Below, piece after piece: positions 5,054 through 10,272 of a stretch of 36,522 bases of DNA. Location of the stretch: assembly GCA_045863235.1 (NCBI GenBank), contig BTUM01000079.1:1-36522 (forward strand), written 5' to 3'. Each line of letters begins with the position of its first letter. Within the stretch, counting starts at the first letter, position 1. Origin of the DNA: Candidatus Xenobia bacterium (GTDB lineage: Bacteria; Vulcanimicrobiota; Xenobia; Xenobiales; QWHO01). The notes under the pieces were generated by a model. It had not been told where the DNA came from. It was given only the letters and a program-made list of their open reading frames with translations, and ran no database searches. A program made the translations under genes and the position numbers.

Positions 5054-5362
5054 ATGCAAAACCCTGTGCGCTTCTCCATCGACCGCTACCCCGATCGGGT
5101 CAGCATGAAGGTCTCGCTCACGCCAGACGCTATCGGATTGCGAGCCCGCTATCGGGCCCTGATTGTCCACCTGCACAACGTTCCCGAGCCCATTTTCTGG
5201 GATCTGGGCCGTGAGCTCGAGTTGGAGCGCCAGGTCGACTGCCTGGGAGCTCCGCAGCGAGTGTGCATCACTTGCTACGGGGTGGAGTCCGACAACAGCC
5301 TGCGGCTTGTCTTCCGCAACTGGAGCCGCCCTGGAGATGGCTTTCCCTTGCCCGAGGGCTAG
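5054..5362 (+). CDS. Hypothetical protein
   Basis: ORF MQNPVRFSIDRY... fills the gap between genes and has host-like codon usage. Confidence 0.6.
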   Translation: MQNPVRFSIDRYPDRVSMKVSLTPDAIGLRARYRALIVHLHNVPEPIFWDLGRELELERQVDCLGAPQRVCITCYGVESDNSLRLVFRNWSRPGDGFPLPEG

Positions 5363-5526
5363 ACTCTATCCTGAACGGCCGACCAGGCCAGCGCCGCTCC
5401 CATCAGTGAAGCAACCCACGGGTTGCAGGTCAGCCCTCAGCCAAAGCCGCTGGCCTTGCTGAGATAGCTGAAGCCCAGGCCCAGCAGGGCACCGAGCAAG
5501 ACGATCAACAGTGTCTGCATGCTCAT
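5359..5526 (-). CDS. Putative small membrane selenoprotein, DUF6132-like (MSMQTLLIVLLGALLGLGFSYLSKASGFG-U-GLTCNPWVASLMGAALAWSAVQDRV)
   Basis: In-frame TGA at 5437-5439. Readthrough gives a second TM helix and a U-x-L-T-x-N-P motif, and a SECIS-like hairpin follows. The TAG stop overlaps the stop of the convergent gene at CTAG 5359-5362. Confidence 0.7.
5411..5426 (-). promoter_or_regulatory. Bacterial SECIS-like hairpin
   Basis: GCAACC-CGUG-GGUUGC begins 10 nt after the UGA. The loop starts 16 nt after the UGA and has G at its second position. Confidence 0.65.
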
Positions 5527-5578
5527 TTCAATCAGGTAGACGCGGCCTGGACGGAAAAGATTCTTTTTTTCTAAAGGC

Positions 5579-5607
5579 TTGACATGTCCTGGGTGGATGA
5601 CTATAGT
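5579..5607 (+). promoter_or_regulatory. Strong sigma70-type promoter with an upstream AT-rich (UP-like) tract
   Basis: TTGACA (5579-5584), a 17-nt spacer, then TATAGT (5602-5607). AAAAGATTCTTTTTTTCTAAA lies just upstream. Confidence 0.85.
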
Positions 5608-5612
5608 CCGAC

Positions 5613-6122
5613 AGTCGACGGCGACGTCGACCGAATCGGCCGGCGACACGGCCGACGGGCTGCCAGAGACCGAGACCTGGCAGGGGTAGCGTGCAGACCA
5701 CAGGACGCCGCGTAACCTCGGACGCGAGACGACCGGGGGAGGCCTGGGGCAAAGGCGGGTCCGCGAGGATCAAGAAGCGATGCAAGTCGCGCCCGCTCGA
5801 GTGGAACCAGGAGGGACCGATGAGGATGGAGCCGGTCTACTGACGAAGAGTCAGCGCTCCGGGAAGCGACAGAACCGGCATACCGAGCGTGAGAAGCTCG
5901 GCGGGCTGCCAGAGTCCGAAATCTGGCAGGGGTAACGCGCAGACCAAAGTTGCGTGGCAGTGTCTCGACTGCCTGAACATCGAGGCGGGCCTGGAACCGG
6001 GTCGGGACCGTGAGGAGAACGAGCGAGCTTGCTCGCCACCGACTTGAGGTTGAACCAGGAGAGTCCGGTGAGGTTGGAGCCGGACCGCAAAGCCACCTGT
6101 TACAGGGTGGCTTTTGTGTTTT
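5613..6122 (+). ncRNA. Unidentified structured non-coding RNA with two tandem homologous domains
   Basis: Bounded by a promoter and a terminator, with no credible ORF. It is a near-continuous series of hairpins. Blocks 5656-5700/5902-5946 match at 40/45 and blocks 5804-5837/6052-6085 at 29/34, with compensatory changes. Confidence 0.75.
6089..6122 (+). terminator. Rho-independent terminator
   Basis: AAAGCCACC-TGTTACAG-GGTGGCTTT followed by TGTGTTTT. Confidence 0.85.
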
Positions 6123-6126
6123 CAGG

Positions 6127-6420
6127 TCAATTGAAGGGACGATGAACGCCGGGCGGGGGAGGGGGCGTCTCGGAAAAGAAAATCTCCCACAACTCGCGGA
6201 TGGCCTTGCTACGTGTCACGATCCAGCGGTTGAAGCGGGCCGTTTTCTCAGGGTCCATGTGCTGAAGAATCTCCTCTTGCCGTTGCTCAGCCTCGACCAG
6301 GTCGCAGCCGGTCTCGCGCATGATCTGCCGCAGCACCGCCTCCATGTCAGCCCAGATGAGGAAGCTCGAGAAGCGTCCGAAGTCGGTGTTGTCGGGAAGC
6401 TCGGGCGGTCCGGGTTGCAT
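6127..6420 (-). CDS. Hypothetical helical protein (start uncertain; the ORF is open to 6651)
   Basis: The C-terminal ~100 aa read as a real protein (DFGRFSSFLIWADMEAVLRQIMRETG...). The upstream extension overlaps a gene remnant on the other strand. Confidence 0.5.
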   Translation of the reverse strand: MQPGPPELPDNTDFGRFSSFLIWADMEAVLRQIMRETGCDLVEAEQRQEEILQHMDPEKTARFNRWIVTRSKAIRELWEIFFSETPPPPPGVHRPFN

Positions 6421-6552
6421 CTCGGGGTTGGGTTCGTTTCGGGGAGACACAAACCTGTCTTCAAGGTCCCACCAGGATGGATCCTCTGGGAGCAAGACTC
6501 CCTGTTCACAAGTCGGCAAGGCAGAGTTGGGAGTCGTCCATCTCCAGGCTTG

Positions 6553-6681
6553 AGCCGTGATAGCGTCGCCTTTATGAGCCTGGCCTCCGACCTCGGCCCG
6601 GGCGACGACAACGACACATGGGATGTTTACCTGACGGAGAGAAATGTTCACACGTCCCCGGGGGCCGTGACCGGTTCGTGA
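6553..6681 (+). pseudogene. Isolated fragment of a TolB/PD40-like beta-propeller repeat
   Basis: SRDSVAFMSLASDLGPGDDNDTWDVYLTER resembles the repeat S-x-D-G-x-x-VAF-x-S-x-A-x-NLV-x-GD-x-N-x-x-x-DVF. It is a single copy with no upstream gene body. Confidence 0.55.
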
Positions 6682-7392: not shown

Positions 7393-8889
7393 TCAGGGGG
7401 AGGTCAGCTCGAGGTAGGCCCGGGTCAGCTCGGGTCCGGGGGGCAGGGATAGCTCGCGCTTGAGGCGCTCGACGAACTGGTGGTAGCAACGCACCGCCTC
7501 GTCGCGCTTGCCCTGGCGGGCCAGCGCCTTGAGCTGCAGCGCGGCCGAGGACTCGCTGGTGGGCTCCAGCTCGAGAGCCCGCCTGGCGGCTTGCTCGGCC
7601 GCACCGGGGTCGCCTGGCAGAGAGAGCGCGGCCAGACGGTCGAGGCATTCCAGCGCCACTTTGAGGGCCGCGGAGCGCACCGGGCCCACCCACTCGTCGG
7701 CACAATCGGGGGCGAACTCACCCCGATAGAGCGACGCGGCGGCGGCAAAGCTGCGGGCCGCATCCTGCTCGCTCGGGGCGGCCAGTGCTTCGCGCCAGGC
7801 CCGCTGCATCTGCTCCACGTCCCACCACAGAGCGAGGTCGGTGTTGAAGCGGTAGCTCTTTTCATCGCGCAGCACCACCTCTGGCAGGTCCAGTGCTTTG
7901 CGCAGGCGGTGCACGCTGGAGACCAGGGCTCGCTGGGCTCGGTCGGCGTCGCTGTCGGGCCAGAACAGGTCGCGCAGCCGCTCCTGAGAGACGCTCTGCC
8001 CTCCCCGGCTGATCAGGTAGACGAGCAACCAGCGGGCCCGAGCTGACTCGAAGGCGGGCGGAGGCACCACCCGACCTCGCACCGAGATGACCGTCTGTCC
8101 CAGCGTGACCAGGCGCAGGCACTCCGTCTCGGGTGTTCCCTCGGCCGGAGCGGTGCCGGACGCCCGCTGAATCTCCTCGAGCACAGTCGGCTCGATGGCC
8201 AGTCCGTCCAGTGAGCGTCCGTGCGCCAGAGCCACGCAGGCGTTCAGCACCTGCTCGGCCCGCCCCCGCGAAGGGGAGCCCAGGGCCAGCAGCAGCCGCA
8301 CCACCGGCTCGAGAGGTTCGACCTCTCCCCCGCGAGAGACTGCGTCACTCATCAGATCGTGCAGTCGGCAGGCCAGGCGCACGGCCTCCAGCTCGTCGCC
8401 GGTCAGGCCCAGGCGCTGGCCGGCGGCAACCGCAACCTGCTCGACCGCCTGGACGTGACTTGCGAACTCGGGATGTTGCTGCAGCTCTTCGGTGAAGGCC
8501 AGCAAGGCCGGCCGCAAGGGGGGGCGGCGGCGTCGCTTGCGCAACTCGCGAATTCGTGCCAGGAAGCCGTCCAGGTCGAAGGGTTTCTTGAGGTAGTCAT
8601 CCACGCCCAGCCGGAGGGCCTGAACGGGGGCTTCCTCGTCGGCGAAGCCGCTGATGAGGATCAGGTGCGCTTCGGGCAAGATCTGACGGAGAGCAGTGAC
8701 CGTCTGGATGCCGTTCATCTCGCTCATGCGAACGTCCGAGATGACCAGATCGAACATCCGCTGGCGGGCTCTCTCCAGCGCCTCGCGCCCGCTGGCGGCG
8801 CTCACCACCGAGAAGCCCTCGCGCTCGAGCAGCATGCTCAGGGTCTGGCGCACCAGGTCGTCGTCGTCCACCAGCAGGATGTCCAGCAC
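7393..8889 (-). CDS. Response regulator: REC, truncated HD-like segment, SARP-type wHTH and BTAD domain
   Basis: REC motifs ILLVDDD, DLVISDVRM and YLKKPF; LACRLHDL; ARWLLVYL...LFWPDSD...VHRLRKAL; LYRGEF; LELEPTSE...ELSLPPGPEL. The GTG start at 8889 is inferred (ORF open to 8934). Confidence 0.85.
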   Translation of the reverse strand: MLDILLVDDDDLVRQTLSMLLEREGFSVVSAASGREALERARQRMFDLVISDVRMSEMNGIQTVTALRQILPEAHLILISGFADEEAPVQALRLGVDDYLKKPFDLDGFLARIRELRKRRRRPPLRPALLAFTEELQQHPEFASHVQAVEQVAVAAGQRLGLTGDELEAVRLACRLHDLMSDAVSRGGEVEPLEPVVRLLLALGSPSRGRAEQVLNACVALAHGRSLDGLAIEPTVLEEIQRASGTAPAEGTPETECLRLVTLGQTVISVRGRVVPPPAFESARARWLLVYLISRGGQSVSQERLRDLFWPDSDADRAQRALVSSVHRLRKALDLPEVVLRDEKSYRFNTDLALWWDVEQMQRAWREALAAPSEQDAARSFAAAASLYRGEFAPDCADEWVGPVRSAALKVALECLDRLAALSLPGDPGAAEQAARRALELEPTSESSAALQLKALARQGKRDEAVRCYHQFVERLKRELSLPPGPELTRAYLELTSP

Positions 8890-8940
8890 GGTCGCGCAGT
8901 TCGACGAGGCGCCGGAGCCGGCCTGTAGAAGCACCCGCCC

Positions 8941-10272
8941 ATGGGACCCGATCCGGCCAGAAGCTGGCGTTTTTCCGTCGCGGTTCTGGCCGTGGGGCTG
9001 GGGCTCTGGATGGCCAGCGGGCCGCTGGTGGCGCCTCCGGCCTTGACCCTGCTGGCTCTGGCCTTGATCGCCATCTATGGCGAGCTACGCTCACTCTACG
9101 TACCCGGCTACGGCGCCCTGAACCTGGGCGAGTGCCTCTATTTCGGGGCCACCCTGTGCTGGGGCCCGGCCACGGGAGCTCTGCTGACCGCCCTGCTGGG
9201 GCTGACCTCCGATCGGCTCAACCGCAAGCGCCCTGTGGTGCTGACTTTCAACCTGGGCTGGTCGCTCGTCACCTTCACCCTGGTGGGGATGGTGGCCCGC
9301 GGAGCCGATCTGTCAGCGCCGGCTCGCCTGCTGGCCGCCGCCCTCACCTACGCGGTGACTGCTGGCGCGCTGCAAGCGGCCGCTCAGAGCTATTTCGAAG
9401 GCCTCTCCTTCCAGCACACCGCCCGGATGCAGTTTCAGGGACTCAAGCTGCAAGTTCCGGCCGTGCTCACGCTGGGCACCCTGTGCTCCCATCTTCTCTT
9501 GTTGGCCCCCTGGGCCGTGCTGTTGATGGTCTTTCCGGTCGAGATCACCTCGGCCTACGTGCGCATTCGCGAGCTGCATACGAGCCTGCAAGCCGCCCAC
9601 CGACAGTTGCAGGAAGCCCAGGCTCGCATGCTGGCCGGCGAGCGCCAGGCCTCGCTGGGCGTGATGGCGGCCGGCGTGGCCCACGAGATCAACAATCCCC
9701 TGGCGGCCATGGCGACGACCCTGCACATGCTCCGCCGCCACCCGGGCGATGCGGCCTGCCTGGAGCTATTAGAGAAAGGCATCGCCCGCTGCCAGGGGAT
9801 CACCACCCGCATGCTGGCCTACTCGCGCGGGCCGGGCACGGGCCAGGAGCGGGCCGATCTGGCCGCCGTGCTGTCCGATGCTCTCTTGTTCACCGAGGTG
9901 CAGCTCAGAAGGACTCCTGATCTGGCCGGCCTTCCCCCGGTGGCCTGCGAGCCGGGCGAACTGGTTCAGGTGCTCACCAACCTGCTCTCCAATGCTCACC
10001 AGGCCAGCCCTGAAGTGGAGGTGAGCGCCCGCGCGAGCGGGGCCATGGTCGAGTTGGAGGTGCACGACTTCGGTCCCGGTATTCCTGAGGAGATCCGGTC
10101 CAGGCTGTTCGAGCCGTTCTTCACCACCCGGCCGGTGGGCCAGGGCACCGGGCTGGGGCTCTTTCTCGCTCGGGGCATCGCCGAGCGAGCCGGCGGAAGC
10201 CTGGAGCTGGCTGCCACCGGCCCGGGGGGGAGCACCTTCCGGCTGTTGCTGCCCACGCTGAGCAACAGATAG
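8941..10272 (+). CDS. Membrane sensor histidine kinase
   Basis: Multi-TM N-terminus. H-box GVAHEINNPL, N-box QVLTNLLSNA, G1 DFGPGI, F-box FEPFFTT and G2 GTGLGL. Confidence 0.92.
   Translation: MGPDPARSWRFSVAVLAVGLGLWMASGPLVAPPALTLLALALIAIYGELRSLYVPGYGALNLGECLYFGATLCWGPATGALLTALLGLTSDRLNRKRPVVLTFNLGWSLVTFTLVGMVARGADLSAPARLLAAALTYAVTAGALQAAAQSYFEGLSFQHTARMQFQGLKLQVPAVLTLGTLCSHLLLLAPWAVLLMVFPVEITSAYVRIRELHTSLQAAHRQLQEAQARMLAGERQASLGVMAAGVAHEINNPLAAMATTLHMLRRHPGDAACLELLEKGIARCQGITTRMLAYSRGPGTGQERADLAAVLSDALLFTEVQLRRTPDLAGLPPVACEPGELVQVLTNLLSNAHQASPEVEVSARASGAMVELEVHDFGPGIPEEIRSRLFEPFFTTRPVGQGTGLGLFLARGIAERAGGSLELAATGPGGSTFRLLLPTLSNR

Follow-up and report, generated by a model that had tools for sequence, protein, structure and literature searches.

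A family of stand-alone non-coding RNA genes with tandem structured units in one lineage of Eremiobacterota

What kind of gene occupies a stretch of ~500 nt that holds two similar sequences in tandem, is set between a promoter and a terminator and has no credible open reading frame (ORF)? The question is raised by positions 5579-6122 of contig BTUM01000079.1 (C79) from a Candidatus Xenobia bacterium, which at its full length of 36,522 nt constitutes the DNA analysed here (the window). An earlier reading of the letters, made without database searches (the original prediction), had proposed a stand-alone structured RNA of two homologous domains. We report that positions 5613-6122 form a gene of their own, which is bounded by a sigma-70-type promoter and an intrinsic terminator and specifies a ~510-nt non-coding RNA (ncRNA). 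This RNA belongs to a family in which the layout is fixed: a promoter and a 5' hairpin are followed by 1 to 12 or more structured units in tandem and then by a terminator.

The near-consensus promoter with an AT-rich upstream tract, noted in the original prediction, matches the consensus at 11 of 12 positions, is the sole such site in 5300-6400 (shuffles gave 0.1) and places the predicted transcription start at ~5613-5615. In two related genomes (G001 and G002) the orthologous loci have both hexamers unchanged, whereas the spacer differs at 5 sites and the tract directly before the promoter at 11. Over the 510 transcribed nt these orthologues show 17 variable sites vs 16 in the 34 nt at 5561-5594, and the conservation pattern, as far as these alignments go, fits that of a functional gene. 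The terminator (AAAGCCACC-UGUUAC-AGGGUGGCUUU, then UGUGUUUU) faces, as had been described, a convergent gene, i.e. a 174-aa ORF at 6127-6651 (-) with no Pfam or NCBIfam match. Since it has a conserved promoter and terminator of its own and the next gene is convergent, the RNA is not a 5' leader. A protein-coding gene was rejected because the internal ORFs are short (at most 52 aa on the + strand and 85 aa on the - strand) and unconserved, 0/6 tested ORFs had a Pfam match at E≤0.1, and the indels between homologous units are not multiples of three; thus no conserved translated frame crosses the region. The folding energy does not separate the strands (z = -2.55 for + vs -2.76 for -) and, because minimum free energy cannot tell them apart, the strand assignment rests on the promoter, the terminator and the G-U pairs. 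Specifically, a U-G pair at alignment columns 260-271 is present in 41/41 units, and this pair and further G-U pairs are compatible with the + strand alone.

The transcribed part is made up of two homologous units with a mean column identity of 78% (alignment A1), including direct repeats of 51 and 35 nt that are 86% identical and spaced 246 and 248 nt apart. Each element listed in the original prediction is present in both units and in the same order. Two of its statements had to be adjusted: the variable hairpins exist in each unit but the two after the GGGTARCGYGCAGACCA box are parts of pseudoknots, and the 246-nt repeat is real but the functional conserved unit is instead a core of 65-106 nt.

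The core consists of a hairpin (P2), the junction GRGGUA and a second hairpin (P3) with the loop GCARACYNNAG, and ~20 of its positions are ≥90% conserved across taxonomic families. Selection on RNA structure, as first suggested by stems that change while keeping their pairing, was supported by compensatory changes in homologous cores as well as in full units. Across 50 cores that represent two taxonomic families (alignment A3), the pairing proposed here is formed in 92%, 10 of the 14 pairs change on both sides and 0/500 shuffles match the observed values, while sliding the partners by 1-3 columns lowers the pairing to 24-45%. The central P3 pair, for example, is G-C in 51, U-A in 34, A-U in 16 and C-G in 8 (mutual information 1.56). 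Moreover, the junction R and the P3-loop Y form G-C in 89 and A-U in 24 of 113 distinct modules without exception (41 G-C and 9 A-U in the 50-core set), and from this perfect covariation we infer that the P3 loop folds back onto the GRGG junction to form a pseudoknot (PK1). For 41 distinct full units of the window's genus, g1 (alignment A4), 39 pairs in eight helices are formed in 97.6%, with 21 of the 39 changing on both sides (0/500 shuffles). Helices P4 and P5 interleave and both covary, and would therefore form a second, H-type pseudoknot (PK2); hence a fold of eight helices and two pseudoknots per full unit is supported by covariation. A third pseudoknot, between the P2 loop (NCCG) and a G-rich tract 5' of P2, appeared plausible by eye and had no mutual-information support. 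The loop of the last hairpin, P8, is 11-16 nt long, purine-rich and Shine-Dalgarno-like; it reads UGAGGAUGGAG in the window, and a related (C)GCUGGAGUGGAGGCGG is found in taxonomic families f2 and f5.

The genome that carries the window (G000; 8.36 Mb, 166 contigs, 97.6% complete) has 27 credible copies of the core module at eight loci, as identified using BLAST, nhmmer and a covariance model: two on C79 (the window), five on C59, three each on C43, C23 and C6, at least nine on C111 and C13 together, and one each on C35 and C12. The contig ends C111:1-800 and C13:123290-123816 have a near-identical 106-nt core-only repeat in common and are almost certainly one locus, the true copy number of which is not fixed because the assembly apparently broke or collapsed inside the array. 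Fourteen of the 27 copies are full units of ~230 nt and the others are core-only "half units"; copies are 64-83% identical throughout the genome and 70-80% within one array. A promoter-like site is present at seven of the eight loci, in six cases as TTGACA-N17-TAnAnT or a near variant (CATAGT at C111) and at C12 in a weaker form (TTGAAT-N17-TAGCTT), with A/T-rich tracts upstream at several of them. A short 5' hairpin stands at the start of most of the predicted transcripts, and each of the eight loci ends with a terminator-like hairpin of the form AAAGCC(N)-loop-(N)GGCUUU, the stems of which covary between loci (GCCACC/GGUGGC, AGCUACC/GGUAGCU, GCCAUCC/GGAUGGC and GCCGUCC/GGACGGC). The suggestion of an undescribed ncRNA class stands, but it was too narrow as a statement on one locus: the window harbours one of eight loci in its genome, within a class-wide family of 1 to ≥12 repeats.

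When related genomes were searched with the model of the core (R1), the RNA family was found in 20 of the 44 genomes of the window's class. By taxonomic family the positives are 4/4 (f1), 14/16 (f2), 1/1 (f5), 0/19 (f3) and 0/3 (f4), and the core copies per genome range between 17 and 27 in genus g1, 14 and 23 in g4, 2 and 7 in g5, and 0 and 3 in g2. Genomes of the RNA-negative f3 are 1.9-4.7 Mb in size vs 5-9.5 Mb for most RNA-positive genomes. Outside the class, a single weak match (E 4e-4) was obtained among 151 genomes sampled from the phylum, with 0/71 in the largest family there. In genus g2, one locus (L017:1380-1920, genome G009) has a single core inside a ~500-nt non-coding stretch that also contains further sequence of apparent structure and, distally, a terminator-like hairpin, and a consensus scan there gave no promoter; this looks like a different architecture of the same RNA family.

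Scanning 185,579 species genomes with a pattern yielded 54 loci, and 38 of these were confirmed by the model at ≥31 bits. The titles of the confirmed loci refer to Vulcanimicrobiota or Candidatus Eremiobacteraeota (17), to "EREM-KAN-1" (4), to "bacterium" only (4), and to Burkholderiales or Selenomonadaceae (13). The last group comprises strong matches in metagenome-assembled genomes (MAGs) named "uncultured Burkholderiales bacterium" or "Selenomonadaceae bacterium" (L058, L059, L062, L068, L073, L079, L086, L087, L102, L106, L107, L093 and L104). At least the contig titled Selenomonadaceae coincides in its coordinates with G009, a genome of the window's order, and the Burkholderiales and Selenomonadaceae titles on RNA-bearing MAG records are probably taxonomically wrong. 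Spread beyond the phylum was considered and the remaining 16 of the 54 pattern loci were taken as chance, 13 being without a model match (Pantoea, Enterobacter, Paenibacillus and others) and three reaching 21-27 bits. A phage or mobile origin was likewise rejected, the one pattern match in viral contigs being unconfirmed by the model. To judge from the genomes searched, the RNA family is seen only in one lineage of Eremiobacterota (Vulcanimicrobiota) and confirmed nowhere else. Among metagenomes the pattern scan gave at least 132 loci, and one contig of 2,859 nt is composed of 12 units with a spacing of ~255 nt and runs off both ends.

Sequences from this locus are also present in RNA libraries. 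At least half of the sampled words of 5560-6130 occur in each of 18 public runs from 15 studies; of these runs, 10 represent RNA libraries, with wastewater, sludge, bioreactor, soil and sediment as their sources. Contigs of four RNA libraries were aligned to 5200-6500, and mismatch-free contigs from three studies, covering 5659-6010 (X9), 5677-6010 (X12) and 5692-6010 (X16), bridge unit 1 and unit 2. Other contig pieces in these runs have loose ends that match paralogous units of G000, and the contig ends at 6010 and within P8 are probably assembly breaks, not RNA ends, because they coincide with sequence common to the paralogues. Runs X12 and X16 show no cover at 5200-5639 and 6124-6500 (uncovered parts are not evidence), X9 has a low-depth contig at 5284-5592, and run X1, which may contain DNA, covers the whole stretch ~4x. 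With conserved signals at both ends, strong covariation and this share of RNA libraries among the runs, the view of a stand-alone, structured and probably abundant ncRNA holds.

With respect to the ends, the predicted start lies 66-68 nt from the core motif in the window, and in metagenome contigs <10 kb the first core motif is located 50-85 nt from the 5' end in 23 of 68. Of the contigs inspected, 23/25 begin with the leader (5' hairpin and P1) and are without a promoter, and one begins ~8 nt downstream of the position at which transcription would start according to the promoter in a related genome; these contig starts lend indirect support to the predicted 5' end. In the size-fractionated RNA library X9, near 6035-6083, a paralogous-unit contig passes from the 3' base of P8 directly into adapter sequence; this junction, observed on a single contig of a single run, weakly hints that RNAs often end a few nt upstream of the terminator hairpin.

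The RNA is unlisted in Rfam and is neither a tRNA or transfer-messenger RNA (tmRNA) nor the 6S candidate of its genome; the original prediction had not recognised it as tmRNA, 6S RNA or a riboswitch. Rfam 15 (4227 models) gave no match at the gathering threshold in the whole window or the eight paralogous loci (64.6 kb) and no family match at E≤1 in four array loci; at E≤10 in 5450-6250 the six best matches score 13-20 bits vs cut-offs of 35-55, and the top three (RNAI, Phe_leader and SNORA64) fall on the terminator hairpin. ARAGORN predicted 0 tRNA or tmRNA genes in 5400-6300. Neither riboswitch families, even at E≤1, nor self-cleaving ribozyme families (hammerhead, twister, pistol, hatchet, hepatitis delta virus-like and others, at E≤10/E≤1) are among the Rfam matches. 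The best 6S-like match of the genome lies elsewhere, at C34:8852-9026 (-) (35.5 bits vs a cut-off of 46.4, E 4.7e-5), matches the model at full length and is probably the divergent 6S RNA of this lineage. Likenesses seen by eye to the B12 box, 5S rRNA, the tRNA D-arm and the PyrR site are not conserved in f2 and have no Rfam support. In the literature, within the sources that are accessible outside subscription journals, no description of the RNA was found, including by its core sequence as text.

Two classes of regulatory RNA built from repeats were considered more closely. A CsrB-type sponge was rejected because no CsrA gene was found (PF02599, 0 matches in G000; the control was positive in three reference genomes) and because the GGA motif is not invariant: P8 provides the only GGA-like loop per full unit, the first GGA is GGU or GGC in 7 of the 14 full units of G000, GAGGAUGG alternates with GAGGUUGG and GUGGUUGG, and core-only units are without the P8 loop. 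A type III antitoxin was rejected because no toxin gene follows; no endoribonuclease of the ToxN, AbiE or CptN type was detected with Pfam among 37 flanking proteins or the window neighbours.

The features of the window locus are collected in Table 1.

Table 1. Positions of the features at the window locus (helices of unit 1 with pairing statistics from alignment of related units)
Feature	Position	Strand	Remarks
A/T-rich tract, UP-element-like	5555-5575 (about)	+	Upstream of the -35 hexamer; read directly
Sigma-70-type promoter	5579-5607	+	TTGACA 5579-5584, 17-nt spacer, TATAGT 5602-5607
Unit 1, full (core module A and module B)	5614-5839	+	nhmmer match 5613-5839, E 3e-45; alignments A1, A4
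5' leader hairpin P0, unit 1	5614-5631	+	GUCGAC-GGCGAC-GUCGAC; kept at the 5' end of the first unit in paralogous loci
P1 hairpin, unit 1	5636-5655	+	Sequence variable, pairing kept; helix 1 100% paired
65-nt conserved core, unit 1	5655-5719	+	Model R1 match, 73.8 bits
P2 hairpin, unit 1	5660-5683	+	CUGCCAG...CUGGCAG; 4/7 pairs changed on both sides (50 units, two taxonomic families)
PK1, unit 1	5684-5699	+	G5684 and G5685 (junction GRGGUA) pair with C5699 and C5698 (P3 loop GCAGACC)
P3 hairpin, unit 1	5689-5708	+	GCGUG / loop CAGACCACAG / GACGC
PK2, H-type, unit 1	5710-5738	+	P4 interleaved with P5
P4, unit 1	5710-5713 with 5722-5725	+	GCGU with ACGC; 3/4 pairs changed on both sides; 94% paired
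P5, unit 1	5716-5721 with 5733-5738	+	CCUCGG with CCGGGG; 3/7 pairs changed on both sides; 96.5% paired
Module B, unit 1	5743-5811	+	Helix P6 around a multi-branch junction with GNRA hairpin and variable hairpin
P6, unit 1	5743-5747 with 5807-5811	+	CCUGG with CCAGG; 100% paired; 4/5 pairs changed on both sides
GNRA hairpin, unit 1	5761-5768	+	CC-GCGA-GG; pair C-G in 36, U-A in 5
P8 terminal hairpin, unit 1	5815-5837	+	GACCG-AUGAGGAUGGAG-CCGGUC; 99% paired; 4/6 pairs changed on both sides
Linker hairpin between units	5840-5854	+	CUGAC-GAAGA-GUCAG; read directly; specific to the window locus
Unit 2, full	5859-6085	+	nhmmer match 5860-6087, E 3e-52
P0, unit 2	5859-5878	+	
P1, unit 2	5883-5901	+	
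65-nt conserved core, unit 2	5901-5966	+	Model R1 match, 74.1 bits
P2, unit 2	5906-5929	+	
PK1, unit 2	5930/5931 with 5945/5944	+	
P3, unit 2	5935-5955	+	
P4, unit 2	5957-5972	+	
P5, unit 2	5962-5986	+	
Module B, unit 2	5990-6060	+	
GNRA hairpin, unit 2	within 6007-6016	+	
P8, unit 2	6063-6085	+	
Intrinsic terminator	6089-6122	+	Stem-loop 6089-6114, 10 pairs, T-rich tail to 6122

Close to the RNA gene, a divergent 30-codon ORF at 5437-5529 (-) starts ~50 nt upstream of the promoter and encodes a hydrophobic peptide (MSMQTLLIVLLGALLGLGFSYLSKASGFG) without a Pfam match, which could be a small membrane protein. Also nearby is a divergent gene pair, in which 7393-8934 (-) codes for a response regulator (receiver, HD-like, Trans_reg_C and BTAD domains) and 8941-10272 (+) for a histidine kinase; no link between this two-component pair and the RNA was found.

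What, then, could such an RNA do? The original prediction had offered, as guesses, a protein sponge or scaffold or a precursor that gives rise to two RNAs. We tentatively favour, at somewhat less than an even chance, a multivalent binding platform, i.e. a decoy, store or scaffold for one cellular factor that acts in trans. Each core module would offer one site of high affinity to a common factor, which would most probably be a protein or a ribonucleoprotein; strongly transcribed arrays would titrate, store or cluster this factor, and the valency would be tuned in evolution via gain and loss of modules. The half units and the near-identical 106-nt core units that have been amplified alone argue that the core is the working unit and that selection acts on its number. 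Because the core is amplified alone, varies in number between 1 and ≥12 and has no linked gene, the module is read as a binding site and the array as a multivalent platform. The next downstream gene is convergent at six of the eight loci, one locus is followed by a same-strand ORF without a family match and one (C12) by a same-strand transporter gene. The convergent arrangement at six loci, together with the lack of a recurring neighbour, argues for action in trans: no gene recurs among the 37 flanking proteins and the window neighbours, and all-against-all BLASTP of 67 ORFs gave one weak pair. The flanking genes, e.g. for an amine oxidase, a clostripain-family peptidase, a DinB-type polymerase, a CHAT protease, an AIR-synthase-related protein, tRNA-guanine transglycosylase and a GGDEF protein, are mutually unrelated.

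Several observations weigh against a multivalent platform. The RNA libraries were assessed through assembled contigs, which show presence in these libraries and nothing on transcription, ends, strand or processing. Among the candidate partners, TROVE/Ro, ProQ and RRM_1 were, like CsrA, not found in G000, and a search for PUF proteins gave no match but was uninformative as the control set gave none either. Hfq alone was found among the common global RNA-binding proteins searched; it is encoded in 19 of the 20 RNA-positive genomes (the exception is 64% complete) and also in 9 of the 24 RNA-negative ones, and since related genomes are not independent these counts are only compatible with Hfq as the partner. 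Moreover, an Hfq site would not need so elaborate a fold. The main objection concerns the core itself. Two pseudoknots and ~20 invariant junction and loop nucleotides are more typical of aptamers and catalytic RNAs than of known bacterial protein sponges, and the complexity of the core is closer to that of small-molecule aptamers or ribozymes than to that of known protein-sponge sites. Finally, one member of the family sits in front of a gene. At C12:51134-51340 (locus L117:4120-4440) a single unit with a distinct conserved 5' domain and its own terminator lies 60-70 nt upstream of a same-strand gene for the S-component of an energy-coupling factor (ECF) transporter (PF12822, 1.5e-24), which has a weak match to the folate family.

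As a side observation, the Hfq domain of G000, C113:6851-7039 (-), lies in a 234-aa open frame, with frames of 90-457 aa in related genomes, and on this basis some Hfq proteins of the lineage may carry long extensions.

An alternative that is kept, although unlikely, is that the modules are tandem aptamers for a small molecule or an ion, the arrays serving as trans-acting sensors or as a ligand buffer and the ECF-linked single unit as a cis-acting riboswitch. The compact pseudoknotted core with invariant nucleotides concentrated in junctions and loops is as expected for an aptamer, and the linkage to the ECF gene is kept in G000, G001 and G004 (proteins 72-96% identical), all within genus g1; no promoter-like site was seen in the gap between the C12 unit and the gene, and this unit may represent a cis-acting use of the module. 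However, the core was found at only 3 of 28 ECF orthologue loci, all of g1, while the orthologues of g4 and f3 are without the RNA. The remaining seven loci have no downstream gene to regulate, and a cis-riboswitch in a 5' untranslated region was rejected for the family in general since the gene next to the window RNA is convergent and the RNA is not a leader at 7/8 loci. Nor was a conserved antiterminator pairing detected by eye, the terminator stems covarying freely and independently of P8, which is fixed, and the absence of Rfam riboswitch matches also speaks against aptamers of a listed type. The thiamin pyrophosphate (TPP) riboswitches present in three f3 loci do not adjoin the ECF gene.

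It is improbable, in our view, that the transcript is a precursor cut into unit-length active RNAs, either by cellular RNases or by a self-cleaving module that would represent a new ribozyme class. The head-to-tail layout with short hairpin linkers between units would suit such processing, a double pseudoknot is as fitting for catalysis as for binding, and the adapter junction at the base of P8 in X9 is a weak hint of an RNA end. Uncut forms exist, however: the contigs from three RNA libraries cross the junction between unit 1 and unit 2 without a mismatch and metagenome contigs span 5 to 12 units. Furthermore, no known self-cleaving ribozyme family was matched, and units that have diverged to 70-80% identity, core-only forms included, yield no single defined product.

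Only a slim chance is given to an architectural RNA, in which modules would dock onto each other (e.g. GNRA loops into neighbouring core helices) and the array would fold or multimerise into a large particle. ROOL and GOLLD are among the large bacterial RNAs reported to form defined particles of large size; here, a conserved GNRA (GYGA) hairpin in each full unit, with a closing pair that is C-G in 36 and U-A in 5, rigid multi-helix modules in series and the wide presence in RNA libraries would agree with such a particle. But core-only units lack the GNRA hairpin and are still amplified, the mutual-information scan of the cores gave no inter-module covariation (signals beyond P2, P3 and PK1 looked like shared ancestry), and ROOL, GOLLD, OLE, raiA and HEARO are absent from the Rfam matches.

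A selfish or neutral transcribed repeat (like repetitive extragenic palindromes, miniature inverted-repeat transposable elements or satellites), or an unrecognised coding or cis-regulatory region, is hardly credible: the module is multicopy and one near-identical 106-nt array broke the assembly, but a terminator-like hairpin is present at every locus and a promoter-like site at 7/8, compensatory changes keep eight helices over family-level divergence, conservation of the transcribed part far exceeds that of its flanks, the copies are 64-83% identical and not near-identical, the ORFs are short and unconserved with no Pfam match, and the sole viral-contig match did not survive the model.

Eremiobacterota (WPS-2, Vulcanimicrobiota) is a globally distributed phylum that is barely cultivated, and the RNA family would give it a signature RNA. 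The module shows the hallmarks known from past discoveries of riboswitches, ribozymes and ribonucleoproteins: invariant junctions, two pseudoknots, heavy covariation and wide presence in RNA libraries. It is an autonomous structured domain that has been multiplied in tandem, in numbers that differ between loci and species, with some arrays exceeding 2.8 kb, and we are aware of no other bacterial case in which a small double-pseudoknot domain is strung together as many as a dozen times and occurs ~27 times per genome. We consider it possible, with rather more reserve than confidence, that this is a new class of bacterial long modular RNA in which each 65-106-nt double-pseudoknot copy captures one ligand molecule, as a decoy, store or scaffold of tunable valency or as a gene-free aptamer array. 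Should the modules bind a protein or a ribonucleoprotein, they would reveal a new global regulatory axis in bacteria without CsrA and ProQ; should they bind a metabolite, they would form the first array of aptamers with no gene attached. At 65-106 nt, the core lends itself to biochemistry and structure determination straight away. As a family of sequence and structure it has no catalogued relative, while its mechanism could prove to be a variant of a known principle.

Known systems share parts of this design. CsrB and RsmX/RsmY/RsmZ are sponge RNAs that act as multivalent decoys of CsrA/RsmA, and they resemble the present family in being stand-alone promoter-to-terminator genes with several paralogues per genome and a repeated element of variable number; purine-rich, GGA-containing hairpin loops also occur in module B. 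The repeat here is, however, a 65-255-nt multi-helix double-pseudoknot domain vs a GGA hairpin of ~20 nt, and no Csr/Rsm model in Rfam was matched. The antitoxin RNAs of type III toxin-antitoxin systems (ToxI, CptI and TenpI) likewise have tandem pseudoknot-forming direct repeats between a promoter and a terminator, and at C12 a same-strand gene lies past the terminator. In contrast, the repeats described here are 3-7x longer, no toxin gene is present and the flanking genes are unrelated housekeeping or function-unassigned genes.

Homologous structured domains in tandem are also known from the glycine riboswitch and from the NAD+-I (nadA) riboswitch with its two homologous domains, while EutX/Rli55 and SreA are trans-acting RNAs that contain riboswitches. 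The present RNA likewise has conserved nucleotides clustered in junctions and could act without a downstream gene, but at 7/8 loci it has no regulated gene and no evident expression platform, and its copy numbers are far above two. OLE, GOLLD, ROOL, raiA and HEARO, which are Rfam families of large "ornate" orphan bacterial ncRNAs, are comparable in having hundreds of nt, many covarying helices, pseudoknots and invariant junction nucleotides, and in being lineage-restricted and turning up in RNA libraries with no assigned function. They are single large folds, unlike the small autonomous module that is present 1 to ≥12 times per transcript and 27 times per genome.

A further parallel in architecture comes from outside bacteria and is an analogy only, with no homology: NORAD is a mammalian long non-coding RNA (lncRNA) of about 12 repeated units that sequesters PUMILIO, of the PUF proteins that went undetected here in a search without a positive control. 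Both are long RNAs of ~250-300-nt repeat units with binding sites (here putative) in each unit, and in both the valency would be central to the architecture. If the RNA is indeed a binding platform, bacteria would have in it a counterpart of NORAD and other eukaryotic lncRNAs that are built from repeats.

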